From NCBI RefSeq assembly GCF_003018255.1, contig NZ_CP027440.1: DNA of 64,000 nucleotides; one strand, written 5' to 3'. Made by a program: the position numbers and the translations under genes. This DNA is from Escherichia coli (GTDB lineage Bacteria; Pseudomonadota; Gammaproteobacteria; Enterobacterales; Enterobacteriaceae). Below, in pieces: positions 4,266-60,302 of this stretch; positions within the stretch are counted from its first letter, which is position 1, and every line of letters begins with the position of its first letter. The notes under the pieces are model-generated. The model was given only the letters and a program-made list of their open reading frames with translations. It ran no database searches and was not told where the DNA came from.

Positions 4266-4284
4266 GCGAGCTACAGTGCCCCAA

Positions 4285-4466
<182 letters not shown>

Positions 4467-4488
4467 TGGTGTCCAAATGCAACACGCT

Positions 4489-25731: not shown

Positions 25732-25775
25732 CAGATGTGGTTATACTCGATCAACATTCAATGAAAGGAGGCAGT

Positions 25776-26204
25776 ATGGCAGTTTCAGCAAGAAATCAAT
25801 TAACCGGAACAGTTAGCACAGTAGCAATGGGCGCTGTGAATGATGAAGTAGAACTGACGCTGGCAGGTGGTGCAAAGCTGGTGGCAATTGTGACTCACAG
25901 CAGCCAGCAAGCGCTGGGTCTGGCGAAAGGGAAAGAAGCGATTGCCCTGATTAAAGCCCCGTGGGTCACGCTGGCAACGGAAGACTGTGGACTGAAATTC
26001 TCTGCTCGCAACCAGTTTGCTGGCAGCGTGTCGACAATCACCGAAGGCGCAGTGAACGCCACTGTCCATATCAAAACGGATGCGGGTTTTGAAATTGTGG
26101 CAGTGGTAACAAATGAAAGTCAGGATGAAATGAAACTCACCACTGGCTCGCGCGTTATTGCATTGATCAAAGCATCAGCCATCCTGATTGCCACCAAAGC
26201 GTAA
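25776..26204 (+). CDS. Small di-Mop (tandem TOBE-domain) molybdate/tungstate-binding protein (molbindin)
   Basis: ORF track frame 25737..26204; start placed at ATG 25776 preceded by AAAGGAGG; two tandem ~70-aa repeats each beginning SARNQ(L/F)xG..S and ending ALIKA (MAVSARNQLTGTVS...ALIKAPWV / FSARNQFAGSVS...ALIKASAI). Confidence 0.75.
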   Translation: MAVSARNQLTGTVSTVAMGAVNDEVELTLAGGAKLVAIVTHSSQQALGLAKGKEAIALIKAPWVTLATEDCGLKFSARNQFAGSVSTITEGAVNATVHIKTDAGFEIVAVVTNESQDEMKLTTGSRVIALIKASAILIATKA

Positions 26205-31209: not shown

Positions 31210-32118
31210 ATGAAAACGGGATCGGAGTTTCATGTCGGTATCGTTGGCTTAGGGTCAATGGGAATGGGAGCAGCACTGTCATGTGTCCGCGCAGGTCTTT
31301 CTACCTGGGGCGCAGACCTGAACAGCAATGCCTGCGCTACGTTGAAAGAGGCAGGTGCTTGCGGAGTTTCTGATAACGCCGCGACGTTTGCCGAAAAACT
31401 GGACGCTCTGCTGGTGCTGGTGGTCAATGCGGCCCAGGTTAAACAGGTGCTGTTTGGTGAAACAGGCGTTGCACAACATCTGAAACCCGGTACGGCAGTA
31501 ATGGTTTCTTCCACTATCGCCAGTGCTGATGCGCAAGAAATTGCTACCGCTCTGGCTGGATTCGATCTGGAAATGCTGGATGCGCCAGTTTCTGGTGGTG
31601 CAGTAAAAGCCGCTAACGGTGAAATGACTGTCATGGCCTCCGGTAGCGATATTGCCTTTGAACGACTAGCACCCGTGCTGGAAGCCGTTGCCGGAAAAGT
31701 TTATCGCATAGGTGCAGAACCGGGACTAGGTTCGACCGTAAAAATTATTCACCAGTTGTTAGCGGGCGTACATATTGCTGCCGGAGCCGAAGCGATGGCA
31801 CTTGCAGCCCGTGCGGGGATCCCGCTGGATGTGATGTATGACGTCGTGACCAATGCCGCCGGAAATTCATGGATGTTCGAAAACCGGATGCGTCATGTGG
31901 TGGATGGCGATTACACCCCGCATTCAGCCGTCGATATTTTTGTTAAGGATCTTGGTCTGGTTGCCGATACCGCCAAAGCCCTGCACTTCCCGCTGCCATT
32001 GGCCTCAACAGCATTGAATATGTTCACCAGCGCCAGTAACGCGGGTTACGGGAAAGAAGACGATAGCGCAGTTATCAAGATTTTCTCTGGCATCACCCTA
32101 CCGGGAGCGAAATCATGA
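31210..32118 (+). CDS. ygbJ: NAD-dependent beta-hydroxyacid dehydrogenase (L-threonate dehydrogenase-like)
   Basis: ORF track 302 aa; N-terminal Rossmann GxGxxG (VGIVGLGSMG), 3-hydroxyisobutyrate dehydrogenase family. Confidence 0.92.
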   Translation: MKTGSEFHVGIVGLGSMGMGAALSCVRAGLSTWGADLNSNACATLKEAGACGVSDNAATFAEKLDALLVLVVNAAQVKQVLFGETGVAQHLKPGTAVMVSSTIASADAQEIATALAGFDLEMLDAPVSGGAVKAANGEMTVMASGSDIAFERLAPVLEAVAGKVYRIGAEPGLGSTVKIIHQLLAGVHIAAGAEAMALAARAGIPLDVMYDVVTNAAGNSWMFENRMRHVVDGDYTPHSAVDIFVKDLGLVADTAKALHFPLPLASTALNMFTSASNAGYGKEDDSAVIKIFSGITLPGAKS

Positions 32119-33377
32119 TCAAGATTGGCGTTATCGCCGATGATTTTACCGGCGCGACGGATATCGCCAGTTTTCTGGTGGAAAACGGTCTACCAACGGT
32201 ACAAATTAACGGTGTTCCAACAGGTAAAATGCCGGAAGCAATCGACGCACTGGTGATCAGCCTGAAAACGCGCTCCTGTCCGGTGGTTGAAGCCACACAG
32301 CAATCGCTGGCGGCTCTGAGCTGGTTGCAACAGCAAGGTTGCAAACAGATCTATTTCAAATACTGCTCTACTTTCGACAGTTCGGCGAAAGGTAATATCG
32401 GCCCGGTTACCGATGCATTAATGGATGCTCTCGACACGCCGTTTACGGTCTTCTCTCCGGCCCTGCCGGTCAACGGACGTACGGTTTATCAGGGGTATTT
32501 GTTCGTAATGAATCAACTGCTGGCCGAATCCGGGATGCGCCATCACCCGGTAAATCCCATGACCGACAGCTATCTTCCCCGTCTGGTTGAAGCGCAATCC
32601 ACAGGGCGCTGCGGCGTCGTTTCGGCACATGTTTTCGAACAAGGTGTGGATGCCGTTCGTCAGGAGCTGGCTCGCTTACAGCAAGAGGGCTACCGCTACG
32701 CGGTGCTTGATGCGCTGACCGAACACCATCTGGAAATTCAGGGAGAAGCCTTGCGCGATACCCCACTGGTAACGGGCGGTTCTGGTCTGGCGATTGGCCT
32801 TGCCCGGCAGTGGGCGCAAGAAAACGGTAACCAGGCTCGCGAAGCAGGGCGTCCGCTCGCTGGGCGCGGCGTAGTGCTCTCCGGTTCATGCTCTCAAATG
32901 ACCAACCGCCAGGTGGCACATTACCGTCAAATTGCACCAGCCCGTGAGGTTGATGTGGCACGCTGCCTCTCAACCGAAACTCTGGCCGCTTATGCACACG
33001 AGCTGGCAGAGTGGGTTCTGGGCCAGGAAAGTGTACTTGCTCCACTGGTTTTTGCCACCGCCAGCACTGACGCATTGGCAGCAATTCAACAGCAATACGG
33101 TGCACAAAAAGCCAGTCAGGCAGTGGAAACACTGTTTTCTCAACTAGCGGCGCGGTTAGCAGCGGAAGGCGTGACACGCTTTATTGTCGCAGGCGGTGAG
33201 ACCTCCGGCGTAGTCACACAGAGCCTGGGCATAAAAGGTTTTCATATTGGCCCAACCATTTCCCCCGGCGTGCCGTGGGTAAACGCACTGGATAAGCCTG
33301 TCTCACTCGCCCTTAAATCTGGCAACTTCGGTGATGAAGCCTTTTTTTCACGAGCCCAAAGAGAGTTTTTATCATGA
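32115..33377 (+). CDS. ygbK: DUF1537-family acid-sugar kinase (3-oxo-tetronate kinase-like)
   Basis: ORF track 420 aa; N-terminal MIKIGVIADDFTGATD typical of the four-carbon acid sugar kinase family; operon position. Confidence 0.9.
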   Translation: MIKIGVIADDFTGATDIASFLVENGLPTVQINGVPTGKMPEAIDALVISLKTRSCPVVEATQQSLAALSWLQQQGCKQIYFKYCSTFDSSAKGNIGPVTDALMDALDTPFTVFSPALPVNGRTVYQGYLFVMNQLLAESGMRHHPVNPMTDSYLPRLVEAQSTGRCGVVSAHVFEQGVDAVRQELARLQQEGYRYAVLDALTEHHLEIQGEALRDTPLVTGGSGLAIGLARQWAQENGNQAREAGRPLAGRGVVLSGSCSQMTNRQVAHYRQIAPAREVDVARCLSTETLAAYAHELAEWVLGQESVLAPLVFATASTDALAAIQQQYGAQKASQAVETLFSQLAARLAAEGVTRFIVAGGETSGVVTQSLGIKGFHIGPTISPGVPWVNALDKPVSLALKSGNFGDEAFFSRAQREFLS

Positions 33378-34012
33378 GCGATTTCGCAAAAGTAGAGCAG
33401 TCTTTGCGAGAGGAGATGACGCGGATTGCCAGTTCATTCTTTCAGCGCGGATATGCAACTGGTTCGGCTGGCAATCTGTCGCTGCTTTTACCTGACGGGA
33501 ATTTACTGGCGACACCGACAGGTTCATGCCTGGGCAATCTCGATCCGCAGCGGCTTTCCAAAGTCACCGCGGATGGCGAATGGTTAAGTGGTGACAAACC
33601 CTCGAAAGAGGTGCTCTTTCATCTGGCGCTGTATCGCAACAATCCGCGCTGTAAAGCGGTAGTGCATTTGCACAGTACGTGGTCGACGGCGCTTTCCTGC
33701 CTGGAAGGGCTGGACAGCAATAACGTTATTCGGCCGTTCACACCATACGTGGTGATGCGGATGGGAAACGTCCCGCTGGTGCCCTATTACCGACCGGGCG
33801 ATAAACGCATCGCACAGGATCTGGCGGAACTGGCAGCAGACAATCAGGCTTTTTTACTGGCAAATCATGGCCCAGTGGTTTGCGGTGAAAGCCTGCAAGA
33901 AGCCGCCAACAATATGGAAGAGCTAGAGGAAACGGCAAAGCTGATTTTTATTCTCGGTGACCGCCCGATCCGTTATCTGACCGCAGGTGAAATTGCGGAA
34001 TTAAGGAGTTAA
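33374..34012 (+). CDS. ygbL: Class II aldolase/adducin-family protein (3-oxo-tetronate 4-phosphate decarboxylase-like)
   Basis: ORF track 212 aa; class II aldolase fold signatures (HLHS, NHG), operon position. Confidence 0.9.
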
Positions 34013-34016
34013 TGCA

Positions 34017-34793
34017 ATGCCTCGTTTTGCAGCTAATTTATCCATGATGTTCACCGAAGTGCCTTTTATTGAACGCTTCGCCGCAGCGCGAAAAGCCGGG
34101 TTCGATGCTGTGGAGTTTCTGTTTCCCTATGACTACTCCCCCCAGCAAATCCAGCAGCAACTGGCGCAAAACCACCTGACGCTGGCGCTGTTCAATACCG
34201 CTCCCGGAGATATTAATGCGGGAGAATGGGGATTATCCGCCCTTCCCGGACGTGAGCACGAAGCACGTGCAGACATCGACCTGGCACTGGAATATGCATT
34301 GGCGCTCAATTGTGAACAAGTCCATGTGATGGCAGGCGTCGTGCCCGCTGGCGAAGATGCTGAACGGTACCGGGCAGTATTTATTGATAATCTCCGCTAC
34401 GCTGCCGACCACTTTGCGCCACACGGCAAGCGAATATTGGTTGAAGCACTCAGCCCCGGCGTTAAGCCTCATTATCTCTTCTCCAGCCAGTATCAGGCAC
34501 TGGCTATTGTTGAAGAGGTTGCGCGAGATAACGTTTTTATTCAACTAGATACTTTCCATGCGCAAAAAGTAGATGGCAACCTGACGCATTTAATCCGCGA
34601 CTACGCCGGGAAATATGCGCACGTACAAATTGCCGGACTACCTGATCGACATGAACCGGACGATGGAGAAATCAACTATCCGTGGCTGTTCCGCCTGTTC
34701 GATGAAGTGGGATATCAGGGCTGGATCGGTTGTGAATACAAACCTCGTGGCCTCACCGAAGAAGGACTTGGCTGGTTTGACGCCTGGCGCTAA
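34017..34793 (+). CDS. ygbM: Hydroxypyruvate isomerase-family protein (2-oxo-tetronate isomerase-like, TIM barrel)
   Basis: ORF track 258 aa; [13 protein letters not shown]-terminus of Hyi/OtnI family. Confidence 0.9.
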
Positions 34794-34881
34794 TTCGTTA
34801 AATCCCCAATTACAACGTACCCATACATCCCCCCATCTACGGATGGGGTAGGTTAACTATAACTTTCAGACAGGGTTTCCC

Positions 34882-36246
34882 ATGTCCACAATTACATTGT
34901 TATGCATTGCGTTAACTGGCGTAATCATGCTGTTGCTGCTGGTCATCAAGGCAAAGGTACAACCATTCGTTGCTCTGCTCCTCGTCAGCCTGTTAGTCGC
35001 ACTTGCGGCGGGTATACCGGCGGGCGAAGTGGGTAAAGTGATGATCGCCGGGATGGGCGGTGTGCTTGGTTCCGTCACTATTATTATTGGTCTGGGCGCT
35101 ATGCTGGGGCGTATGATCGAACACTCTGGTGGTGCAGAGTCACTGGCTAATTATTTCAGTCGCAAGTTAGGCGACAAACGAACTATCGCTGCGCTGACTC
35201 TGGCAGCGTTCTTCCTCGGTATTCCCGTCTTCTTTGATGTCGGCTTTATTATTCTTGCGCCAATCATTTACGGTTTTGCCAAGGTTGCCAAAATATCACC
35301 ACTCAAATTTGGTCTGCCTGTCGCTGGGATCATGCTCACTGTTCACGTGGCGGTACCGCCTCATCCAGGCCCTGTCGCCGCAGCGGGGTTACTCCACGCA
35401 GACATCGGCTGGCTAACCATCATCGGTATTGCGATTTCTATTCCCGTAGGGATTGTTGGCTACTTTGCAGCGAAAATAATCAATAAGCGCCAATATGCGA
35501 TGTCGGTCGAGGTACTGGAACAGATGCAACTGGCTCCGGCCAGTGAGGAAGGCGCGACAAAATTAAGCGATAAAATAAATCCACCGGGCGTCGCGCTGGT
35601 CACCTCGCTAATTGTTATTCCTATCGCGATTATCATGGCGGGTACGGTTTCCGCAACACTGATGCCGCCTTCGCATCCCCTGCTTGGTACGCTACAGCTG
35701 ATCGGCTCACCAATGGTAGCTCTAATGATTGCGCTGGTGCTGGCATTCTGGTTATTGGCTTTACGTCGCGGCTGGAGCTTACAACACACCAGCGACATTA
35801 TGGGCTCAGCCCTTCCCACTGCGGCGGTAGTGATTTTGGTTACTGGTGCTGGAGGGGTATTTGGCAAAGTGCTGGTGGAATCGGGCGTCGGTAAAGCCCT
35901 TGCCAACATGTTACAAATGATTGACCTGCCTCTGTTACCAGCCGCATTTATTATTTCACTGGCGCTGCGTGCATCGCAGGGGTCAGCAACCGTAGCAATC
36001 CTGACAACCGGCGGGTTACTCTCAGAAGCGGTGATGGGATTGAATCCAATTCAGTGCGTATTGGTGACGCTGGCAGCCTGCTTTGGTGGGCTTGGCGCGT
36101 CACATATTAATGACTCAGGGTTCTGGATTGTGACCAAATATCTGGGGTTGTCGGTAGCAGACGGGCTGAAAACCTGGACAGTGTTAACGACCATTCTCGG
36201 TTTTACCGGATTCTTAATTACCTGGTGCATATGGGCGGTAATTTGA
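34882..36246 (+). CDS. ygbN: GntP-family acid-sugar permease
   Basis: ORF track 454 aa, multi-pass hydrophobic, GntP-like. Confidence 0.9.
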   Translation: MSTITLLCIALTGVIMLLLLVIKAKVQPFVALLLVSLLVALAAGIPAGEVGKVMIAGMGGVLGSVTIIIGLGAMLGRMIEHSGGAESLANYFSRKLGDKRTIAALTLAAFFLGIPVFFDVGFIILAPIIYGFAKVAKISPLKFGLPVAGIMLTVHVAVPPHPGPVAAAGLLHADIGWLTIIGIAISIPVGIVGYFAAKIINKRQYAMSVEVLEQMQLAPASEEGATKLSDKINPPGVALVTSLIVIPIAIIMAGTVSATLMPPSHPLLGTLQLIGSPMVALMIALVLAFWLLALRRGWSLQHTSDIMGSALPTAAVVILVTGAGGVFGKVLVESGVGKALANMLQMIDLPLLPAAFIISLALRASQGSATVAILTTGGLLSEAVMGLNPIQCVLVTLAACFGGLGASHINDSGFWIVTKYLGLSVADGLKTWTVLTTILGFTGFLITWCIWAVI

Positions 36247-36253
36247 CCTTAAT

Positions 36254-36290
36254 AAAAGGTCCGATGGGCATCGGACCTTTTATTTAGCGC
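36254..36290. terminator. Bidirectional terminator between convergent ygbN and ecdD
   Basis: AAAAGGTCCGAT-GGGC-ATCGGACCTTTTATTT: stem flanked by A-run and T-run, usable on both strands. Confidence 0.75.
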
Positions 36291-36520
36291 TTACCTTCCG
36301 CCAGCAGCGGCGGGATGCTCGGCACCATCGGCGCGTCATCAATATCTTTCTGCGTCATGCGGAACGCTTCGGGATAATGTTCGCGGCTGGTGCGGCGTAG
36401 CGGTTCGGTATCGCGCCAGGTATAGAGGCAATGCTGGCACTGGTAGACCATCCAGACATCTTTTACCGGCGATTTCGCCATCACTTCAATCTGTTCATCG
36501 GCACAACGTGGACAAATCAT
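36284..36520 (-). CDS. ecdD: Small subunit D of hydroxyarylic-acid (4-hydroxybenzoate/vanillate-type) decarboxylase
   Basis: ORF track 78 aa with zinc-ribbon-like Cys pairs (CPRCADEQ ... CQHC); immediately downstream of UbiD-like gene in same operon. Confidence 0.72.
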   Translation of the reverse strand: MICPRCADEQIEVMAKSPVKDVWMVYQCQHCLYTWRDTEPLRRTSREHYPEAFRMTQKDIDDAPMVPSIPPLLAEGKR

Positions 36521-36530
36521 CTTGTTCTCC

Positions 36531-37958
36531 TTATTGACGTGCGGCCAGCATAGCGGTCAGTTTTTCAGCCCAGGCTTTGGTTTCCGGTAAGTCCACCACC
36601 GGCTGGCTGTAGTGACCACGGTTGTCCGGGGCGACAGGCGTGGTGGCGTCGATAATCAGCTTGTCGGTGATCCCCGCCGGACTTGAGCCAGGGTCGAGTT
36701 CCAGCACGGACATATTCGGCAACTGTACCAAATCCCCTGCCGGGTTCACTTTCGAGGAGAGCGCCCACATCACCTGCGGCAGGTTGAACGGATCAACGTC
36801 TTCATCGACCATAATCACCATCTTCACGTAGCCCAGACCGTGCGGCGTGGTCATCGCACGCAGGCCCACCGCGCGGGCAAAGCCGCCGTAGCGTTTTTTG
36901 GTGGAGATAATCGCCAGCAGGCCGTGGGTGTACATGGCGTTTACCGCCTGCACTTCCGGGAACTCGGCTTTCAGTTGTTGATACAGCGGCACGCAGGTGG
37001 CAGGCCCCATCAGGTAGTCGATTTCGGTCCACGGCATACCAAGATAGAGCGATTCGAAAATCGGTTTGGTACGGTAAGAGACTTTATCGATACGCACCAC
37101 GGTCATGTTACGCCCGCCGGAGTAGTGGCCGGTAAACTCACCGAACGGCCCTTCAATCTCACGTTTACGACTTTCGATAACCCCTTCGAGGATCACTTCC
37201 GAGCCCCACGGCACATCAAAACCGGTCAGCGGGGCGGTGGCGATCGGGTACGGGCTTTCGCGCAGCGCGCCTGCCATTTCGTACTCAGACTGATCGTATT
37301 TCAGCGGCGTGGCCCCCATTAGGGTGATGATCGGATCGTTACCGAGTGTGATGGCAATCGGCAGATCTTCACCGCGCTCTTCTGCTTTATGCAGATGCAG
37401 GGCGATATCGTGCATCGGCACCGGTTGCAGGCCGAGCTTACGCTTGCCCTTCACTTCCATGCGGTAGATGCCGACGTTCTGCTTGCCGAAGTTATCCGGG
37501 TCGAGCGGATCGCGGGAAACCACGCACGCTTTATCGAGATAGAAACCGCCATCACCGTCGTTTAAACGAAACAGCGGCAGAATATTGAACAGGTTGATCT
37601 CGTCGCCATCGACGGTGTTCTGCGCCCAGGCTGGATTGGCGCGGCGCTCCGGGGCAATGGGGAAGTTATCCCAGCGGCGGATAAACTCATCAATCTGTTT
37701 TTTAACCGGGGTGTTTGGCGGCAGGCCGAGGGAAATCGCGTGGTTCTGCCAGGAACCGATGGTGTTCATTGCCACGCGGGCATCGATAAAGCCGCGAATA
37801 TTATCAAACCAAAGCGCGGGCGCGCCGTCGCCGATACGCCCGGTGGCGTTGGCTGCGGCTGCCAGATCCGGTTCCGCGTTCACCTCTTCGCTGATTTTCA
37901 GTAACTGGCCGTGGTCATCAAGCGCCTGTAAAAAGCTGCGTAAATCATCAAATGCCAT
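36531..37958 (-). CDS. ecdC: UbiD-family (prenylated-FMN-dependent) decarboxylase, subunit C of hydroxyarylic acid decarboxylase
   Basis: ORF track 475 aa; UbiD-family length and layout; between UbiX-like gene and small D subunit. Confidence 0.88.
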   Translation of the reverse strand: MAFDDLRSFLQALDDHGQLLKISEEVNAEPDLAAAANATGRIGDGAPALWFDNIRGFIDARVAMNTIGSWQNHAISLGLPPNTPVKKQIDEFIRRWDNFPIAPERRANPAWAQNTVDGDEINLFNILPLFRLNDGDGGFYLDKACVVSRDPLDPDNFGKQNVGIYRMEVKGKRKLGLQPVPMHDIALHLHKAEERGEDLPIAITLGNDPIITLMGATPLKYDQSEYEMAGALRESPYPIATAPLTGFDVPWGSEVILEGVIESRKREIEGPFGEFTGHYSGGRNMTVVRIDKVSYRTKPIFESLYLGMPWTEIDYLMGPATCVPLYQQLKAEFPEVQAVNAMYTHGLLAIISTKKRYGGFARAVGLRAMTTPHGLGYVKMVIMVDEDVDPFNLPQVMWALSSKVNPAGDLVQLPNMSVLELDPGSSPAGITDKLIIDATTPVAPDNRGHYSQPVVDLPETKAWAEKLTAMLAARQ

Positions 37959-38551
37959 TATTCATTCTCCTGAGAAAAATTCCGGGCCTGCGGCAATCCT
38001 TGCCAGCGCCTGGCGTGAGGATGTTCGAGGCCAAATTGATCCAGCACGCGGGCTACCACGTGGTGGACAATGTCATCTACCGTTTCGGGATGGTTATAAA
38101 AGGCAGGCATCGGCGGCACCATCGCCACGCCCATGCGCGAAAGTGCGAGCATATTTTCGAGATGGATTGTGCTAAGCGGCATTTCACGCGGCACCAGCAC
38201 CAGTTTGCGGCCTTCTTTGAGCACGACGTCCGCCGCGCGCCCCACCAGGCCATCGGCGTAACCAGCGCGGATACCGGCGAGCGTTTTCATACTGCATGGA
38301 ATAACGATCATGCCGTCGGTACGAAAGGAGCCGGAAGAGATAGTCGCCGCCTGATCCGCCGGGTTATGGCTGAAGTCTGCGAGGGCGGCAACATCGCGAG
38401 CGCTGTAAGGCGTTTCCAGTTCAATCGTGATTTTCGCCCACTTCGACATCACTAGATGAGTCTCGACATTCGGCATCTCCCGCAGCGCTTGCAGTAATGC
38501 CACACCAAGAGGCGCACCGGTAGCCCCTGTCATCCCGACGATCAGTTTCAT
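37958..38551 (-). CDS. ecdB: UbiX-like flavin prenyltransferase (Pad1-type), subunit B
   Basis: ORF track 197 aa; MKLIVGMTGATGA flavoprotein N-terminus typical of UbiX/Pad1. Confidence 0.9.
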   Translation of the reverse strand: MKLIVGMTGATGAPLGVALLQALREMPNVETHLVMSKWAKITIELETPYSARDVAALADFSHNPADQAATISSGSFRTDGMIVIPCSMKTLAGIRAGYADGLVGRAADVVLKEGRKLVLVPREMPLSTIHLENMLALSRMGVAMVPPMPAFYNHPETVDDIVHHVVARVLDQFGLEHPHARRWQGLPQARNFSQENE

Positions 38552-38697
38552 TGCTTACTCTCTTAATTGTTCGTATACGAACGTTATTATTAACATACTC
38601 CTTCATTTCCACAGCGGCAAGGATTGAAAAGTAACAACATCTTCTTCGTCACTGAAAAACCGCTATGATAGCGACAGAGAATTAGCCCGGAGTTTAC

Positions 38698-39105
38698 ATG
38701 GCGTTACGAAATAAAGCGTTCCATCAGTTACGACAGCTTTTTCAGCAGCATACAGCTCGCTGGCAGCACGAGTTACCTGACCTGACCAAACCACAGTACG
38801 CGGTGATGCGCGCCATTGCTGATAAGCCTGGTATCGAACAGGTGGCACTGATAGAAGCAGCAGTCAGCACCAAAGCAACGCTGGCAGAAATGTTGGCAAG
38901 AATGGAAAATCGTGGCTTAGTCAGACGTGAACATGACGCCGCTGACAAGCGGCGACGCTTTGTCTGGCTGACTGCCGAAGGAGAAAAGGTACTTGCTGCG
39001 GCGATCCCCATTGGTGACAGTGTGGATGAGGAATTTTTGGGGCGTTTGAGTGCAGAAGAGCAGGAGCTGTTTATGCAGTTGGTGCGCAAGATGATGAGCA
39101 AATAG
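38698..39105 (+). CDS. MarR/SlyA-family transcriptional regulator
   Basis: ORF track 135 aa; winged-helix region (LTKPQYAVMRAIADKPGIEQVAL ... RREHDAADKRR); divergent from the decarboxylase operon. Confidence 0.82.
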   Translation: MALRNKAFHQLRQLFQQHTARWQHELPDLTKPQYAVMRAIADKPGIEQVALIEAAVSTKATLAEMLARMENRGLVRREHDAADKRRRFVWLTAEGEKVLAAAIPIGDSVDEEFLGRLSAEEQELFMQLVRKMMSK

Positions 39106-39167
39106 GATGCTGATTGCCGGGTAGGACGCTGACGAGTCTTATCCAGGCGACAAAACACACCGACTTC

Positions 39168-39207
39168 CCAAACAAAAGAAAAAGGCCAGCCTCGCTTGAG
39201 ACTGGCC
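39168..39207 (-). terminator. rpoS rho-independent terminator
   Basis: Minus-strand reading: GGCCAGTCTCAAGCGAGGCTGGCC hairpin followed by TTTTTCTTTTGTT. Confidence 0.8.
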
Positions 39208-39225
39208 TTTCTGACAGATGCTTAC

Positions 39226-40218
39226 TTATTCGCGGAACAGCGCTTCGATATTCAGCCCCTGCGTTTGCAGGATTTCGCGCAAACGGCGCAGGCCTTCAAC
39301 CTGAATCTGGCGAACACGTTCACGGGTGAGGCCAATTTCACGACCTACATCTTCCAGTGTTGCCGCTTCGTACCCCAGCAAACCGAATCGACGTGCCAGT
39401 ACTTCACGCTGTTTGGCGTTCAGCTCGAACAGCCATTTGACGATGCTCTGCTTCATATCGTCATCTTGCGTGGTATCTTCCGGACCGTTCTCTTTTTCAT
39501 CGGCCAGGATGTCCAGCAACGCTTTTTCGGAATCACCACCCAGCGGGGTGTCTACCGAGGTAATGCGCTCGTTAAGACGAAGCATACGGCTGACGTCATC
39601 AACTGGCTTATCCAGTTGCTCTGCGATCTCTTCCGCACTTGGTTCGTGGTCCAGTTTATGGGACAACTCGCGTGCGGTTCGCAGGTAAACGTTCAGCTCC
39701 TTTACGATGTGAATAGGCAAACGAATAGTACGGGTTTGGTTCATAATCGCCCGTTCGATCGTCTGGCGAATCCACCAGGTTGCGTATGTTGAGAAGCGGA
39801 AACCACGTTCCGGGTCAAACTTCTCTACCGCGCGGATCAGCCCCAGGTTGCCCTCTTCGATCAGGTCCAGCAACGCCAGACCACGATTGCCATAACGGCG
39901 GGCAATTTTTACCACCAGACGCAAGTTACTCTCGATCATCCGGCGGCGGGAGGCAACATCTCCACGCAGTGCGCGACGCGCAAAATAAACTTCTTCTTCG
40001 GCCGTTAACAGTGGTGAATAACCAATCTCACCAAGGTAAAGCTGAGTCGCGTCCAGCACACGCTGTGTGGCTCCCTGCGATAACAGTTCCTCTTCGGCCA
40101 AATCGTTATCACTGGGTTCCTCTTCTACTAAGGCCTTTTCGTCAAAAACCTCAACTCCGTTCTCATCAAATTCCGCATCTTCATTTAAATCATGAACTTT
40201 CAGCGTATTCTGACTCAT
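39226..40218 (-). CDS. rpoS: RNA polymerase sigma factor RpoS (sigma-38)
   Basis: ORF track frame 342 aa; start placed at [21 protein letters not shown] (330 aa); sigma70-family regions 2-4. Confidence 0.97.
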
Positions 40219-40790
40219 AAGGTGGCTCCTACCCGTGATCCCTTGACGGAACATTCAAGCAAAAGCCTGGTTCCGCCGATTTATCGCTGCGGCAAATAAC
40301 GCAGCGGGTTTACGGATTTCCCCTTGTAACGAATTTCAAAATGCAAGCGTGTTGAACTGGTTCCGGTGCTACCCATGGTTGCTATTTTTTGCCCCGCCTT
40401 CACTTCTTGTTGTTCCCGGACCAGCATTGTGTCGTTATGGGCGTAGGCACTCAGGTAATCATCATTATGTTTGATGATAATCAGATTACCGTAGCCGCGC
40501 AGCGCGTTACCGGCATAAACAACGCGGCCATCTGCGGTCGCGATAATTGCCTGTCCTTTGCTGCCTGCGATATCAATCCCCTTGTTGCCCCCCTCAGAAG
40601 CGCCAAAGGTTTCGATCACTTTGCCCTCAGTCGGCCAGCGCCAGGTGGAGATAGGCGTACTGGTTGATGTACTGCTGACAGTCGGCTCGGTTGTGCTTGC
40701 TGTTGGTACCGTTACAGGCGCTGTGACCGTGGTCGCAGTTGGCTTGTTGTTCGGCAACATTTTGTTAGCACTCTGTTCACCCGAAGACTC
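40219..40790 (-). promoter_or_regulatory. rpoS long 5' leader and main promoter, embedded in the nlpD coding region
   Basis: From established E. coli knowledge (rpoS transcribed from a promoter inside nlpD with a leader of several hundred nt); only the gene arrangement is seen here, the promoter itself was not mapped. Confidence 0.5.
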
Positions 40791-41420
40791 AGAATACGTA
40801 ATTGTCGGTTGCGACGCAACAGCAACGGTGGAATTTTGTGCAGGCTTGATCACAACTCCTTGCTCTGCTGCGTCGGCCTGGGTAATGGCATTTCCGCCAG
40901 TGATTGGCGTACCGGAAGCATTACCCACCTGTAAGGTCTGACCGACGTTCAGCGCGTATGGTGCCTGAATATTGTTGCGCTGAGCAAGGTCACGGAAATC
41001 GTTGCCAGTAATCCAGGCGATATAGAAAAGTGTGTCGCCTTTTTTCACGGTATAGGTACTGCCGCTATAACTGCCTTTCGGAATGTTCCCATACTGACGG
41101 TTGTAGACGATGCGTCCGTTTTCCATCTGTACCGGCTGCTGAGCTACTGGCTGTACTGGCTGGATTTGCGGTTGTTGAGTAGCCTGAATTTGTGGCTGCT
41201 GTACCGGCTGAATTTGCGGTTGCTGCGCTGTAGACGTCGTCCCCATTTTCGGCGGCGGCGTAATCAACATACCAGAATTGGTATTTGCAGGCGCATTGCC
41301 ATTAACGGAGCTGACCGGTGCCGGTGGATTTGAAGTGTCAGAACAGCCTGCCAGCCATAGCGAAACCAGTGACAAAGCCGCAATGCGGCGAACGGTGAAT
41401 TTTGGGCTTCCCGCGCTCAT
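40281..41420 (-). CDS. nlpD: Murein hydrolase activator lipoprotein NlpD (LysM + M23 peptidase-like)
   Basis: ORF track 379 aa; lipobox LAGCS, Q/P-rich repeat linker, LysM and LytM domains. Confidence 0.95.
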
Positions 41421-41559
41421 TTATCCCCCAGGAAAAATTGGTTAATAACCAGTGACATAATTACCGTGCAAGGCACCATACTGAACACTGGAAAAGATGT
41501 TCACGATACGCTGACCTGCGGCAAAATAACCAGGAAAAATCCAGGTATTTCCTCACGTT

Positions 41560-42921
<1,362 letters not shown>

Positions 42922-50365: not shown

Positions 50366-51188
50366 CGGTTTATCCCCGCTGACGCGGGGAACACACATGA
50401 ATGTCGGTTCAGACCGTGTTTTTACCCGGTTTATCCCCGCTGGCGCGGGGAACACGAGGCTGAACAGGGAGGGGGCTACCGGCACAGCGGTTTATCCCCG
50501 CTGGCGCGGGGAACACTTGCCAACCGCCAAAGACTGGAAAACCAATCTCGGTTTATCCCCGCTGGCGCGGGGAACACTTAAACTTGCCGCCGGTATGGGG
50601 GGAACGGGCCGGTTTATCCCCGCTGGCGCGGGGAACTCGTTTCGCGTCGATCGCCTTTTGCGCAATCGCGCCGGTTTATCCCCGCTGGCGCGGGGAACTC
50701 TTTCTTTTTCCATTTAAGTTATTCTAATACCCCGGTTTATCCCCGCTGGCGCGGGGAACTCGATCATGCCTTACTAAAAGGTCCGCTGACGGGCGGTTTA
50801 TCCCCGCTGGCGCGGGGAACTCATCATGACAAAAAGTTACGCTCATCTATTCAACGGTTTATCCCCGCTGGCGCGGGGAACTCTCCATATGTTGCCCCGC
50901 TCGGGACAACACCCCCGGTTTATCCCCGCTGGCGCGGGGAACTCTTAGCGCCGACAAAAGAAGTTGCGGATAACAGCGGTTTATCCCCGCTGGCGCGGGG
51001 AACTCGCCCGTTCCCAGGGAGTGCGGCTCCACCCCCGCGGTTTATCCCCGCTGACGCGGGGAACTCTTCAGTTTCACACTCGGTAATGCCGTTATTTACG
51101 GTTTATCCCCGCTGGCGCGGGGAACTCCTCGGGGCCAGCCTCCCCCATTAACCCGGCACCGGTTTATCCCCGCTGGCGCGGGGAACTC
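50366..51188 (-). CRISPR. Type I-E CRISPR array, 14 direct repeats of 29 bp (plus-strand form CGGTTTATCCCCGCTGGCGCGGGGAACTC) separated by 13 spacers of 32-33 bp; transcribed on the minus strand from the leader at 51189-51293
   Basis: Repeats located by eye at 50366, 50427, 50488, 50549, 50610, 50672, 50733, 50794, 50855, 50916, 50977, 51038, 51099, 51160 (61-62 bp period); repeat is reverse complement of the I-E repeat GAGTTCCCCGCGCCAGCGGGGATAAACCG; adjacent cas2-cas1. Confidence 0.97.
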
Positions 51189-51293
51189 TCTAAAAGTATA
51201 CATTTGTTCTTAAAGCATTTTTTCCCATAAAAACAACCCACCAACCTTAATGTAACATTTCCTTATTATTAAAGATCAGCTAATTCTTTGTTT
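51189..51293 (-). promoter_or_regulatory. CRISPR leader (AT-rich) between last repeat and cas2 stop
   Basis: About 105 bp AT-rich sequence (..AAAGTATACATTTGTTCTTAAAGCATTTTTTCCCATAAAAACAACC..) directly abutting repeat 14, located at the cas2-proximal end. Confidence 0.85.
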
Positions 51294-52497
<1,204 letters not shown>

Positions 52498-52512
52498 TTT
52501 ATTACACCTCAA

Positions 52513-53112
52513 TCACAGTGGAGCCAAAGATAGCAAGCCACATCCCATCGATTTAGCTGGCCCAATACCTTGCTGTACAAGATCTATTAACGCTGGCGCG
52601 TCGTTGATGGTGATCACCCCTTCAAAGCAAACCGTTTGGATCTTTCCACTTTTACCATCACCAGAAAAATACTGTGGCCGTTCCGATATGGGATGCACAT
52701 CTTCAACGCGCGCCGCATTGCCCAATTTACGTTGCAACCACGCGATTTGTTCTGCTTCTTTTATTAACGGAACCCGACAGCGTTTAATATTCCCTTTACT
52801 GTCCAGGCGCTTTTGATTGTCGAGAATAGTTTTGATCGGATTTGCCCGAAGCCGAAAATAGAGTGGAACACCAACCTGAAGTTGAAATTCAACCTGTTTA
52901 GTTTTAATGACTGTCGCAACGGCAGTAGAAACAGGCATTTGCGCTGACTGCAATAAAACATGACAGCCTTCTGGTGTGTTTCGCTTCTCAACATGAAAAA
53001 GAAAATCACGAGCAGCATCCGGTCTGTTTGGAAATAAATGCCATAATCCCTGGTGAAGTTGGTAAAGATCCCTGCTCCAGGCCCTGGCAATGATGACTTT
53101 ACTGAGATACAT
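52513..53112 (-). CDS. cas6e: Cas6e (CasE) crRNA endoribonuclease
   Basis: ORF track 199 aa (MYLSKVIIARAWSRDLYQLH...). Confidence 0.95.
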   Translation of the reverse strand: MYLSKVIIARAWSRDLYQLHQGLWHLFPNRPDAARDFLFHVEKRNTPEGCHVLLQSAQMPVSTAVATVIKTKQVEFQLQVGVPLYFRLRANPIKTILDNQKRLDSKGNIKRCRVPLIKEAEQIAWLQRKLGNAARVEDVHPISERPQYFSGDGKSGKIQTVCFEGVITINDAPALIDLVQQGIGPAKSMGCGLLSLAPL

Positions 53113-53773
53113 CCATACCTCCTTTAATCACATACCATTCTCGGGAAGCAAATTGTCGAGGTAAGGTGATCATCGGTTCGTCGCGCACCGTAAATTTTAA
53201 ATGATGCCCGTCAACTGATTCCTCACTATAAATATCGCCGCCAACGGGCTCATAATTTAATAGCGCCTTCTGAGGATCCGACGCCTGACATGTCCCGAGA
53301 AAAAGCGGTTGTGTTAGCGGACAACTCCTCCGCCCCAGATACGGTGTATACCGAGGCTTTAATACTGCTTTTTCAAGTTCTGACATAACCATCGTTGCCT
53401 GTGGTGTTAACCAGATAGCGACGGTAAAGGAGGCATCACATAAATATTCGCGCCATGTTTGAATCGTTTCATGACTTTTCAAACCACGGTAATCTTCTCG
53501 CGCTCCAAGGACTGTATGGTAATCACGCAACCCCGTTACAGACACACGACGATCGTCAAGAATGAGTTCATCGCAGCGCACTGCAAATTGCACACTCTCT
53601 GATAACGCCTGTAATGAAGAAGTATCATCACGTTGGATCCCAAGACAAGCCCCGAGTAGCCCTAATAACCCGCTTCGGGTCGGAAATCTTCCGGTAGGTC
53701 GCGTTCCTTCAAAGGTCGGCTGCCCCCAGGCTTGCATTGGCCCAGCAAGCCGCAAGATCAAATAAGATCTCAT
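53099..53773 (-). CDS. cas5: Cas5e (CasD) Cascade subunit
   Basis: ORF track frame 226 aa; start placed at MRSYLILRLAGPMQAWG (224 aa). Confidence 0.94.
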   Translation of the reverse strand: MRSYLILRLAGPMQAWGQPTFEGTRPTGRFPTRSGLLGLLGACLGIQRDDTSSLQALSESVQFAVRCDELILDDRRVSVTGLRDYHTVLGAREDYRGLKSHETIQTWREYLCDASFTVAIWLTPQATMVMSELEKAVLKPRYTPYLGRRSCPLTQPLFLGTCQASDPQKALLNYEPVGGDIYSEESVDGHHLKFTVRDEPMITLPRQFASREWYVIKGGMDVSQ

Positions 53774-53775
53774 GT

Positions 53776-54867
53776 TCACGCCTCGCCATTATTACGAACC
53801 CAGGATTTTAACTGTTCTAAAGTAGGCATTTGTTTAACTTGAGCAGTAATTGGGTCTACATCAGATAAGCTGAATTGCGCAGCAGCTCCGTTCAGACCAT
53901 ATCCATTGGCAACGCGATCCCAATATTGATTAAACGCCTGTATAGACGGTTGCAAAAAGCCATCTTTCGCTTTAACCGCTTTTTCAAAAGCATTTGCCAT
54001 AGAAAGTGGCATATCGGAGAAATTAACCATTACCATATCCGCAGGGTTAAAAGCGGCATAAGTACGCTGTTTTGCTCCAGGGACCTCTGTTGCCAGCATA
54101 TGAACAACATGGGTTGCAATTTCCAGAGCCTGCTCCCTGGAGGCACCACCTAAATTTTCCTGAAGTTGAGCGAGGTTAATGTTGGCATAACGATAAAAAA
54201 CACCCGATGAAAATTCCTGAGTTCCCAGATGTGCAGAACCTTGTTCCTGTAAATCATCTACAGCGGTGAACCAGTCAATATCAGAATCAACCTGATGAGT
54301 AGTGATCGCATGCGCAATGGACATTGCACCATCAACTTTTCCCAACTCACTCATCATGCCGCTGGTTGCCATTCTTCCACTAAGCGCAATATCAACACCC
54401 TGCTGTAAATTCACACGTATGGCGGCAATATCTTCCTTAAGAACTTTGAGCAGCTTTTTATCATCCAGATTATCAGCCTCTGCTTTTGCAACCTGCTCAC
54501 AGAACCAGGCTATTTCTCCCACAACCCAGGGAGTAACCGCATCGGCAGAAATCTTTTCGGCTTCATCAACTAATTTACCGGAGAGCAGCGCTAATGTCTT
54601 ATCGATGATTTTTTGGTCAAAACGTTCACCAAGTTTTTGCCGAAGAACATCACGTAATTGTGCAAGATGAATTGTTCTGAGACTGGATTCACCAATATTT
54701 TGTGCGTAATAATCACTTTTACGCATCGCATGTTTAAGGCTTTGACTTGAAATTCTTACTCGTCTTTTCCCGCCGAAAATAGCGTCTTTCTGCATGTTCA
54801 TATCGTCGCGGTTCAGACATGAAGGGCTGTGAGAGATCAGAACATGAATATTGATAAAGTTAGACAT
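53776..54867 (-). CDS. cas7: Cas7e (CasC) Cascade backbone subunit
   Basis: ORF track 363 aa ([22 protein letters not shown]...). Confidence 0.95.
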
Positions 54868-54879
54868 AGAAAGGTTTCC

Positions 54880-55362
54880 TTACGCATTTTTGTTTGTGGT
54901 CAATACAAAATCTTCCAGAAGTTGCTGGCGTTCGCGCTTTCCCCACCAGGTCAACATCCTGGCCATTAATGGCCAGTCAAGTACGGGTTCGGCGTGAGTA
55001 AGTAATCGACGTAACTGGACCATATCGGCTGTTCTGTCAGCCCGAATTAATTGAAAGATACGGCGCTCGTTAATTCTTCCACTATTGGCTAAAGCTCTTC
55101 CCAACGAGATACCTGTTGTTTGCTCCGTTTTTTTGTCCTGATGTCGGATGACATTCTTTCCTGCGCTCAGGCAAAACACCATGCGCAAAAGAGCCTGCTG
55201 GTGACGTGGGTTTTCCCAACCAAAAGATTGCACCAGCCTATAAAACGCAGGGATATCGCGTAATTCATCAGGTTCTGAAACACGTCTAATTTGCGCACAT
55301 GCTCCATTATCCAGTTGTTGCCAGGCTCGATATAAAGCCATTGCATCAATTTCATCAGCCAT
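54880..55362 (-). CDS. cse2: Cse2 (CasB) Cascade small subunit
   Basis: ORF track 160 aa. Confidence 0.94.
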   Translation of the reverse strand: MADEIDAMALYRAWQQLDNGACAQIRRVSEPDELRDIPAFYRLVQSFGWENPRHQQALLRMVFCLSAGKNVIRHQDKKTEQTTGISLGRALANSGRINERRIFQLIRADRTADMVQLRRLLTHAEPVLDWPLMARMLTWWGKRERQQLLEDFVLTTNKNA

Positions 55363-56863
55363 TTGATGGCCCTCCTTGAGGTTTTAACTCCCGTAAATGT
55401 TTGTATAGCGTGGCGCGGGCAAGCGCTAATGTGCTTATTAATTTAGGATGATGTGCATAGGGAGCTACAGATTGATTAAATAGCATTTCACACAATTGAT
55501 GAAGTTTGTCTCGTAAATCAGCTATTACCTCATCAGCTTGGGAAAAATTAATATTCGCCAATACATCGGGAATTAATAATTCACTCTGTCGATAGAAATG
55601 CCTTTCTGCAGTCTCATGAACAGAAACTCCGGCCCCTTTGAAGTCTTTATTTTTAAACCCTTCTGCAAAGGTATATAACGCCTTGCGTAAGGCTGTTTTA
55701 TATCCCAAACCAACAGTCACTATTTCGTTTATCACATTGCCGTATTGTTGCCACCCCTGATTAAACATCAACACATCATGACGCCGTTCAAGAATAGATG
55801 CTTGATTATTACGATATCCCCCCATAATCAATTCAAGAGGACTTTGCGGCGCAATATTTCTGAATTGATTCACAACCGCCGCCACGCGATTTCCATTTTC
55901 ATTTTGAATAATCTTATCTACCACAACTCGGCTGATTTGTGTCCATGATGGTGCGGAGGTGGTGAAAGCAAGAAATTTTTCCTCAACCTCCCCTTTCTTG
56001 ACTGTTACCAGACAAGGGGAATGCGGATGGGGCCATAGCCCATTAACTGTAAAGGTAAATTTTTCCTTAAGAAAACCGGTATAACGCAAATTGCTTTCCT
56101 GACCACAGCAAGAACATTTACCAATCCCAATGGGATCGCATAGTTCAATATGCGCTGGTTGCCAGAATAAACCACGGACAAACCCAATTGAAGAAGCAGG
56201 CACCGATTCATTCGGCTTGACAGGCTTAACCCAGGTAGGTTGGTTTTCCGTATGTAATTCATTGGGAAATTGTTTTTGAAGACGAGGTATTGTGAGGACA
56301 TTGAGTAATACCGTCGAGCGAAGATCGATCCCACATACGAAGGTGGTTATAGGTGTTCCTCCACGTAAACCGCTTTTAAAGCCACCACCAAAACCAGGTG
56401 CCTGATTCGCCTGGTTGAATAACGCAATCGCAGTGCATCCACCACATAATGCTTCACCCTGCCCCGGTTGATTGACAAATGCACAATTCGTCGCGCCGCT
56501 TACCCCAGCCAACAGTTTTTCCATTGGAGTCACATCATTTGCTTTGACACCTTTGGTCTGCATAAAGGGATGTTCTGCGTGATTAAGGTAGAACATATCT
56601 ATCCACGGCGCGATGAGTTGTTGAAACTCATCTTCAGTGAGCGGATTCATTATGCGATGTCGAAATTCAACGTCATCTTTTGCCGGGGCGATAATTTGCC
56701 CAATGCAAACCAGCAGTGCTAAAGTGGCCAGTTCCATATCGTCACGGGGCAAACTTAATCGCCACTGATCTCTACTGCAGTATAGCGATTGCAGATTTAT
56801 GATTTGGACTTTCCCCCCGTTTCGCGGGCGTACAGGGATCCAGTTATCAATAAGCAAATTCAT
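55355..56863 (-). CDS. cse1: Cse1 (CasA) Cascade large subunit
   Basis: ORF track 502 aa (MNLLIDNWIPVRPRNGG...). Confidence 0.95.
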   Translation of the reverse strand: MNLLIDNWIPVRPRNGGKVQIINLQSLYCSRDQWRLSLPRDDMELATLALLVCIGQIIAPAKDDVEFRHRIMNPLTEDEFQQLIAPWIDMFYLNHAEHPFMQTKGVKANDVTPMEKLLAGVSGATNCAFVNQPGQGEALCGGCTAIALFNQANQAPGFGGGFKSGLRGGTPITTFVCGIDLRSTVLLNVLTIPRLQKQFPNELHTENQPTWVKPVKPNESVPASSIGFVRGLFWQPAHIELCDPIGIGKCSCCGQESNLRYTGFLKEKFTFTVNGLWPHPHSPCLVTVKKGEVEEKFLAFTTSAPSWTQISRVVVDKIIQNENGNRVAAVVNQFRNIAPQSPLELIMGGYRNNQASILERRHDVLMFNQGWQQYGNVINEIVTVGLGYKTALRKALYTFAEGFKNKDFKGAGVSVHETAERHFYRQSELLIPDVLANINFSQADEVIADLRDKLHQLCEMLFNQSVAPYAHHPKLISTLALARATLYKHLRELKPQGGPSNG

Positions 56864-57277
56864 TTGTTCTCCTTCATATGCTCCGACATTTCTCCTGCAT
56901 TTCTATGCGTCGGCACACTTCCGTTATCGGTAAAAACAAAGAAAAAATACGGCGTAATTAATTCAATAATCACATTCACTGCAAAAATATATTCATTGGT
57001 TTAATACAATTAACCTATACATATATTAAGATGTGTTGAATTGTTTAAAGACAATAATGCATGCATTTCAAATCTGCAAGTTATTCGTTTTATTATCAAA
57101 GAAATTTTTAGTTATAATAATTACCATAAATTTTATTACATAAAATATTCATACTGTGAATATAAAATCTCATACCGGGAAATTAAAAGAAGATGTACAT
57201 TGTGCACTTTCCCTACTTAAGTAGGGATAAACCGTTATTGGTCTTGTTATCGTCATTGATACCAATCATTCCCGAAG
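56864..57277 (-). promoter_or_regulatory. AT-rich cas3-cse1 intergenic region expected to carry the Cascade operon promoter (Pcas) and H-NS/LeuO control sites
   Basis: 414 bp strongly AT-rich non-coding stretch directly upstream of cse1; regulatory assignment is from established E. coli knowledge, exact promoter positions not determined here. Confidence 0.6.
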
Positions 57278-59944: not shown

Positions 59945-60248
59945 TAATAGCCTCCCTGTTTTTTTAGTATTATCGATGATATCAGTGGACTATTTTTCGA
60001 TGCTGCTCATAAATATCGAATTACAGTGATATACACATGTCTTGCCTCCCTGCAAAGAAGAGACTAACATTCGAATTGCTTAGGTTCGAACGCAGGCCTC
60101 AGGTTGATAGAAATATCGCCTGGGGCTTTTGTCCATCTGGAACCTCGCGAATGCTTAACGCCAGACAGCCTCAAGCACCCAACTCCATTCTATACCTGTT
60201 AATTCTCCCTGCGATGTTCACCTTTAAATGCCGGAATGCTGCTCGCAA

Positions 60249-60290
60249 AATAAAAACGCCCCCATCATTTCTGACAGAGGCGTTTAATTT
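60249..60290 (-). terminator. Putative terminator downstream of cysH (end of cysJIH operon)
   Basis: Minus-strand reading: AAACGCC...GGCGTTT 7-bp stem with long loop followed by TTATTTTGCG; weak. Confidence 0.35.
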
Positions 60291-60302
60291 ATCCGGCAAT
60301 AT

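Follow-up and report, generated by a model that had tools for sequence, protein, structure and literature searches.

Sigma-S, the product of rpoS, is the general stress and stationary-phase sigma factor of the cell. Its regulation through the mRNA leader was worked out on the K-12 rpoS allele, and the rpoS promoter was reportedly mapped experimentally in K-12 by Lange et al. in 1995 and Takayanagi et al. in 1994. Work that used the 5' segment from -564 to +188 has described the inhibitory stem, RNase III cuts at -15/-94 and the mechanism of sRNA action (PMC2831331). Two Hfq motifs, (AAN)4 and A6, precede the sRNA site by 60-80 nt and their roles have been described (PMC3458560).

The gene and its surroundings vary between strains. 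At codon 33, GAG is usual in natural non-K-12 isolates, MG1655 carries CAG and some K-12 stocks carry an amber TAG (PMC2700278); the Q33E form is reportedly similar in functional activity (PMC3074542). In the mutS-rpoS interval, the arrangement called pattern IV (EPEC E2348/69-type) comprises ygbN (o454), kpdD-kpdC-kpdB-slyA/hosA, rpoS and nlpD (Ewers et al. 2014, PMC4209514), and this o454-nlpD pattern is typical of non-B2 phylogroups (PMC4209514).

Here we describe the nlpD-rpoS locus in a 64,000-nt stretch of Escherichia coli DNA (contig NZ_CP027440.1, assembly GCF_003018255.1), hereafter the window. The locus was compared over 2,195 nt, in a gap-free alignment, with K-12 MG1655, O157:H7 Sakai and the closest complete genomes. 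With high confidence we regard it as a standard E. coli nlpD-rpoS locus with a functional, natural-type (Glu-33) rpoS that is expressed and regulated as in K-12.

The rpoS gene is intact

The two genes and the rpoS terminator are placed as follows.

39226..40218, minus strand: rpoS coding sequence, sigma-S, 330 aa plus stop (from the open reading frame and its translation)
39179..39212, minus strand: rpoS intrinsic terminator, 15-bp stem with a T-rich tail (from a terminator scan)
40281..41420, minus strand: nlpD, 379 aa, murein hydrolase activator lipoprotein, host of the rpoS promoter and leader

The open reading frame at 39226..40254 (minus strand) holds the MSQNTLKV start at 40218, after which 330 codons run to the stop with no internal stop; the preliminary description was thus right that rpoS is full length. 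RpoS equivalog models in NCBIfam recognise the protein well above their cutoffs (NF004207, 604.6 bits against 394, residues 1-329; TIGR02394, 480.7 bits against 378.7) and the Pfam regions follow one another uninterrupted: Sigma70_r1_2 (56-88), r2 (94-163), r3 (174-248) and r4 (262-315). A 342-aa form starting at ATG 40254 was considered and rejected, as the sequence there equals that of K-12 and it is the ATG at 40218 that has a Shine-Dalgarno sequence in front of it. The RpoS equivalog model also speaks against the longer start, its alignment beginning at the first residue of the 330-aa protein.

RpoS of the window has the same amino acid sequence as Sakai NP_311622.1 and RefSeq WP_000081550.1, the latter being the RpoS annotated in CFSAN018748, RM14516, JNE23-011 and DETEC-S792. 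An exact-sequence look-up found it on at least 1,000 contigs, under the record name 'MULTISPECIES RpoS [Enterobacteriaceae]'. Since the protein is the same as that of the common functional allele, sigma-S activity in vivo (katE/HPII catalase, accumulation of glycogen, resistance to stress) is predicted to be positive.

The neighbour nlpD is equally ordinary. NlpD scores 679 bits against NCBIfam NF008123 (cutoff 311), contains LysM and Peptidase_M23 domains, and its gene is separated from rpoS by a 62-nt spacer (40219-40280). The order surE-pcm-nlpD-rpoS is the same in K-12, Sakai and four other genomes.

Comparison with K-12 and O157:H7

The K-12 MG1655 gene (b2741) has the same length, the same nlpD-rpoS order and the same terminator hairpin as the window. 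The Sakai gene (ECs_3595, NP_311622.1) encodes the same 330-aa protein with Glu-33 and has the same leader elements. Over the aligned 2,195 nt the differences are distributed as follows.

K-12 MG1655: 21 differences; nlpD 9, all synonymous; rpoS 12, only codon 33 non-synonymous
O157:H7 Sakai: 18 differences; nlpD 6, one non-synonymous; rpoS 12, all synonymous

Thus K-12 RpoS has Gln-33 (CAG) where the window has Glu-33, the 11 further rpoS differences being synonymous, and Sakai NlpD has H46 where the window has N46, next to 5 further synonymous differences. Alignment of rpoS and its leader with these two references had been suggested beforehand; its outcome is ordinary, with residue 33 the only residue of the sigma factor that differs from K-12.

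40120..40122, minus strand: codon 33, GAG (Glu), the natural-isolate allele; CAG (Gln) in K-12 MG1655

The preliminary description had singled out codon 33 for comparison with reference strains. The residue is Glu here and in Sakai, and Gln in K-12 MG1655. It does not lie within the 13-residue string that was quoted for it: that string corresponds to residues 37-49, and codon 33 encodes the second of the three Glu residues in ALVEEEPS. A query of 87 nt with codon 33 at its centre was found exactly in 4,807 of the 5,414 complete E. coli genomes that gave a match (~89%); among the matches listed, the one-mismatch class contains the K-12 laboratory derivatives DHB4, ATCC 98082 and HB101. As this count agrees with the literature, Glu-33 is the species norm and does not distinguish the strain; at residue 33 it is K-12 that is unusual.

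Promoter and leader elements

The rpoS control region had been placed within nlpD, as in other E. coli, and both the promoter and a leader of ~567 nt are indeed found there. Positions are numbered with the A of the rpoS ATG (window 40218) as +1. The leader was delimited by its identity to the sequence of K-12, the strain in which it was mapped.

40791..40819, minus strand: main rpoS promoter in nlpD, 17-nt spacer; identical in K-12 and Sakai
40819-40814, minus strand: -35 hexamer TTGCGT, -601..-596 from the ATG
40796-40791, minus strand: -10 hexamer TATTCT, -578..-573 from the ATG
40219..40785, minus strand: rpoS 5' leader, ~567 nt, of which 40281-40785 doubles as nlpD coding sequence
40403..40414, minus strand: (AAN)4 Hfq distal-face binding motif AACAACAAGAAG, -196..-185; same in K-12 and Sakai
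40385..40390, minus strand: A6 Hfq-binding motif AAAAAA, -172..-167, within CAAAAAAT at 40391-40384
40315..40336, minus strand: target AAAUUCGUUACAAGGGGAAAUC of the sRNAs DsrA, RprA and ArcZ, -118..-97; identical to K-12 and Sakai
40224..40229, minus strand: Shine-Dalgarno sequence GGAGCC, -11..-6; same in K-12 and Sakai

The position of the hexamers is compatible with a transcript start near -567 (window ~40785). A generic sigma-70 consensus scan of 39100-41700 called no site and so missed the rpoS promoter. The known promoter is a poor match to the consensus, hence the scan neither confirms nor refutes it, and the promoter was assigned because the sequence equals the one mapped by experiment in K-12. 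An Rfam scan of the whole window returned no family for the rpoS leader, its sole match being sok (60024-60180).

The layout of the Hfq motifs agrees with that described in the literature, (AAN)4 at -196..-185 and A6 at -172..-167 preceding the sRNA target at -118..-97. The target AAAUUCGUUACAAGGGGAAAUC also forms the upstream arm of the predicted inhibitory stem: in a fold of -150..+30, -124..-94 pairs with -18..+12, and the minimum free energy (MFE) structure equals the centroid (-54.3 kcal/mol, z-score -2.2). This predicted pairing fits the reported cleavage by RNase III at -15/-94 (PMC2831331). Judged by sequence, every mapped control element is unchanged: promoter hexamers, (AAN)4, A6, sRNA target, Shine-Dalgarno sequence, inhibitory stem and terminator.

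Pairing with the sRNAs was calculated for K-12 sRNA sequences against a 51-nt site, with 300 shuffled sites as the control. DsrA forms a predicted duplex of -34.4 kcal/mol that none of the 300 shuffles equalled, and RprA one of -32.5 kcal/mol that was equalled by a single shuffle. In the same crude calculation the duplex with full-length ArcZ did not reach significance, with 37 of the 300 shuffled sites doing equally well. Duplexes of the full sRNAs with a 280-nt leader segment were discarded in favour of the 51-nt site, as they consisted of meaningless long-range interior loops and were no better than shuffles.

The mutS-rpoS interval and the origin of the allele

The preliminary description had called the adjacent mutS-rpoS interval polymorphic, and it does differ from K-12 and is of a non-K-12 type. 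The interval contains pphB, ygbI-ygbN, then kpdD, kpdC, kpdB and the MarR/SlyA-like hosA.

36531-37958: kpdC, open reading frame collinear with the JNE23-011 annotation
37958-38551: kpdB, open reading frame collinear with the JNE23-011 annotation
38698-39105: hosA, MarR/SlyA-like, open reading frame collinear with the JNE23-011 annotation

In an alignment with K-12, Sakai and JNE23-011, homology to K-12 stops right after the terminator stem (~39181) and the sequence then continues as the Sakai/JNE23-011 type. Beyond the terminator K-12 proceeds directly to ygbN, whereas the window has hosA-kpdBCD first. Sakai shares the kpdB/hosA-side junction with the window but has no ygbI-N between pphB and kpdD; the collinearity with JNE23-011 includes ygbI-N. 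The kpd-hosA block adjoins rpoS in 2,377 of 5,426 complete genomes. The layout of the window matches pattern IV of PMC4209514, an assignment made by gene order alone.

The allele itself is assembled from widespread parts. Of 60 ranks sampled at even spacing from 5,420 genomes, the first 10 (about one sixth) carry the 582-nt promoter and leader exactly, among them one O157:H7 strain, ECOR29 and PCN033; K-12 derivatives have three mismatches to this segment. The 993-nt rpoS coding sequence found no exact match among complete genomes, the best having one mismatch, and the best match to the full 2,195-nt nlpD-rpoS segment has three mismatches in the same collection. A synonymous GAA at codon 330 was considered as a SNP private to this strain and rejected, as its exact 87-nt context occurs in 1,004 genomes. 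RM14516 has the rpoS of the window except at codon 330. CFSAN018748 has exactly the same nlpD and differs at three rpoS sites; at two of these, codons 55 and 168, the window agrees with RM14516. The rpoS allele is therefore a new combination of common synonymous variants, and that combination is its sole unique feature.

JNE23-011, the closest genome, shows 5 differences from the window over ~22 kb. It is further separated by ~36 SNPs clustered at 36918-38430 (kpdC/kpdB) and by scattered SNPs in rpoS, nlpD and pcm. This clustered and scattered pattern fits recombination in a known mosaic region, and recombination in the mutS-rpoS region would account for the reshuffling of the synonymous rpoS SNPs. 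The nearest genomes are 99.0-99.8% identical over the flanks. A search of complete genomes for a donor lineage with an exact kpdC-rpoS match found none, the best reaching 99.5%.

These observations bear on a second reading, in which recombination has produced a distinct, mosaic rpoS allele, characteristic of a rare lineage and useful as a typing marker but with no functional consequence. The chances of this being so are, in our estimate, about even. It would account for a coding sequence with no exact complete-genome counterpart although each of its SNPs is individually common, for the way RM14516 and CFSAN018748 each match a different part of the locus, for the SNP-dense patch directly downstream in kpdC/kpdB and for nearest genomes that reach no more than 99.8% identity over the flanks. 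Against it, only 3-5 sites in rpoS are informative, a number at which recombination is indistinguishable from recurrent mutation, and the collection holds complete genomes, so that exact matches may exist among drafts. A mosaic origin is in any case compatible with a standard nlpD-rpoS locus, of which it would be a sub-case.

SNPs in the leader

Relative to K-12 the leader has three differences (-294, -183 and -162) and relative to Sakai one (-306), all of them synonymous third-position changes in nlpD. The window equals K-12 over -700..-295 and over -161..+96. Two of the SNPs flank the Hfq motifs on their 3' side, -183 at a distance of 2 nt from (AAN)4 and -162 at 5 nt from the A6 run; both motifs are intact, and the alleles at both positions are common to Sakai and the window.

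The full leaders of the window and K-12 are predicted to be almost equally stable (-195.1 kcal/mol for the window, -194.4 kcal/mol for K-12) and to share their 3' structure in the full-length fold. In a short fold of -263..+60 the MFE structures of the window and K-12 differ 5' of the sRNA site, so that a minor influence of -183 or -162 on folding is conceivable, if improbable.

That the leader SNPs alter Hfq- or sRNA-dependent translation, giving carriers of the haplotype a different basal or induced level of RpoS from K-12, seems to us very improbable: the G at -183 and the A at -162 do adjoin the two Hfq-binding motifs, the short fold does shift upstream of the sRNA site and RpoS levels are strain-specific (PMC3074542), but the motifs, sRNA site and inhibitory stem are all unchanged, the gap between the full-leader folds is 0.7 kcal/mol, the changes fall at synonymous third codon positions of nlpD as neutral drift predicts, Sakai carries both alleles too, and the variation in level has been put down mainly to ppGpp and other trans factors and not to the rpoS sequence (PMC3074542).

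Discussion

The reading of the region as a standard, functional nlpD-rpoS locus combines two kinds of claim. Gene integrity, identity of the protein with a common allele and conservation of the mapped elements are observed. Promoter use, activation by sRNAs and RpoS activity in this strain are inferred by analogy with work on K-12. We found no sequence evidence that contradicts this reading. On this reading the differences from the reference strains are neutral and the allele has no distinguishing functional polymorphism. The preliminary description had named, as the outcome that would refute its point, an allele identical to a reference and devoid of distinguishing polymorphisms; for the protein, which equals that of Sakai, and for the leader, which is common, this is largely the case, and what remains are synonymous SNPs.

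If the locus works as in K-12, most rpoS mRNA would start at the promoter inside nlpD, whose -10 hexamer occupies 40796-40791. In the resulting ~567-nt leader, the segment -124..-94 would pair with the Shine-Dalgarno/start segment -18..+12 and so block translation. Hfq would load on the (AAN)4 and A6 motifs (-196..-167) and help DsrA, RprA or ArcZ to pair with -118..-97, thereby freeing the ribosome-binding site. The transcript would end at the hairpin terminator at 39212-39179.

RpoS activity depends on trans factors that are encoded outside the window, among them RssB, Hfq, the sRNAs and ppGpp. The level of RpoS is also known to vary between strains independently of the rpoS sequence, largely through ppGpp and other trans factors (PMC3074542). 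Together these two points mean that an intact rpoS does not prove normal RpoS levels.

The biology of the locus is already known; the allele is common and offers no new biology. It is highly doubtful that the natural leader haplotype (G at -183, A at -162) tunes Hfq loading or folding in a way unlike K-12; were it to do so, K-12, the basis of all mechanistic work, would be slightly unrepresentative for the translational control of rpoS. The pattern IV layout and the mosaic of common SNPs carry typing and phylogenetic information only. An intact rpoS is nonetheless a useful negative result, as stored and laboratory isolates often carry rpoS mutations. With the species-typical Glu-33 allele and with known leader control elements that equal those of K-12, the strain is predicted to be RpoS-proficient.

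The mutS-rpoS interval

The polymorphic stretch next to rpoS (31500-39225) is of the composite type called pattern IV, a layout of the mutS-rpoS region described by Ewers et al. 2014 (PMC4209514), in which the following two segments are found.

Within 31500-39225: K-12 segment, consisting of pphB and ygbI-ygbN
Within 31500-39225, directly adjoining rpoS: O157-type segment, consisting of the hydroxyarylic acid decarboxylase genes kpdD/kpdC/kpdB and the MarR/SlyA-like gene hosA

A search of complete E. coli genomes placed the kpd-hosA block beside rpoS in 2,377 of 5,426. Compared with the closest genome, JNE23-011, about 36 SNPs are clustered in kpdC/kpdB (36918-38430); the roughly 22 kb preceding this patch contain just 5. 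Lying immediately downstream of rpoS, the patch has the look of a tract imported by recombination. No exact match to the 36918-38430 tract was found among complete genomes, the best reaching 99.5%.

On the other side of rpoS, alignment with K-12 (MG1655) revealed one lone difference in the pcm-nlpD intergenic region, where the nlpD promoters are situated. This position, 41478, is T in both the window and the O157:H7 reference Sakai but G in K-12; on the aligned sequences, K-12 is once more the exception.

Other features of the window

Further features were located as follows.

25737-26204, plus strand: ORF between fhlA and ygbA, listed as 155 aa and annotated in JNE23-011 as TOBE-domain-containing
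50366-51190: CRISPR array of type I-E, adjoining iap, in which the repeat CGGTTTATCCCCGCTGGCGCGGGGAAC recurs about 14 times with a 61-nt period
51300-59944: cas2-cas1-cas6e-cas5e-cas7e-casB-casA-cas3, after the CRISPR array
60024-60180, minus strand: sok antitoxin RNA (Rfam RF01794), between cas3 and cysH

The ORF at 25737-26204, given as 429 nt in the JNE23-011 annotation, appears to be the counterpart of c3292, listed as a putative molybdenum-pterin-binding gene (PMC4209514). The Sakai map has no annotated gene between fhlA and ygbA. At 4279-4468, a 96-nt unit holding REP-like palindromic sequence (GCCGGATGCGGCGTAAACGTCTTAT...) occurs in two tandem copies with 82% matches, probably an intergenic BIME/REP cluster.

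The CRISPR region is 367 nt longer than that of DETEC-S792, the closest genome for that half of the window, an excess that corresponds to about six additional repeat-spacer units. Beyond cas3, sok scored 104.4 bits in the Rfam scan (gathering score 59). Where Sakai has a 50-aa Hok/Gef protein annotated, the ORF listing of the window shows nothing of 40 aa or longer that resembles an intact hok gene, the sole nearby minus-strand ORF being 60171-60299 (42 aa).

Relatives of the window

The nearest complete genomes are JNE23-011, JNE112863 and DETEC-S792. Among 5,426 complete E. coli genomes, the top identity was 99.8% for 14500-39225 and 99.0% for 39226-64000; with none exceeding these values, the lineage of the window is therefore sparsely represented among finished genomes.
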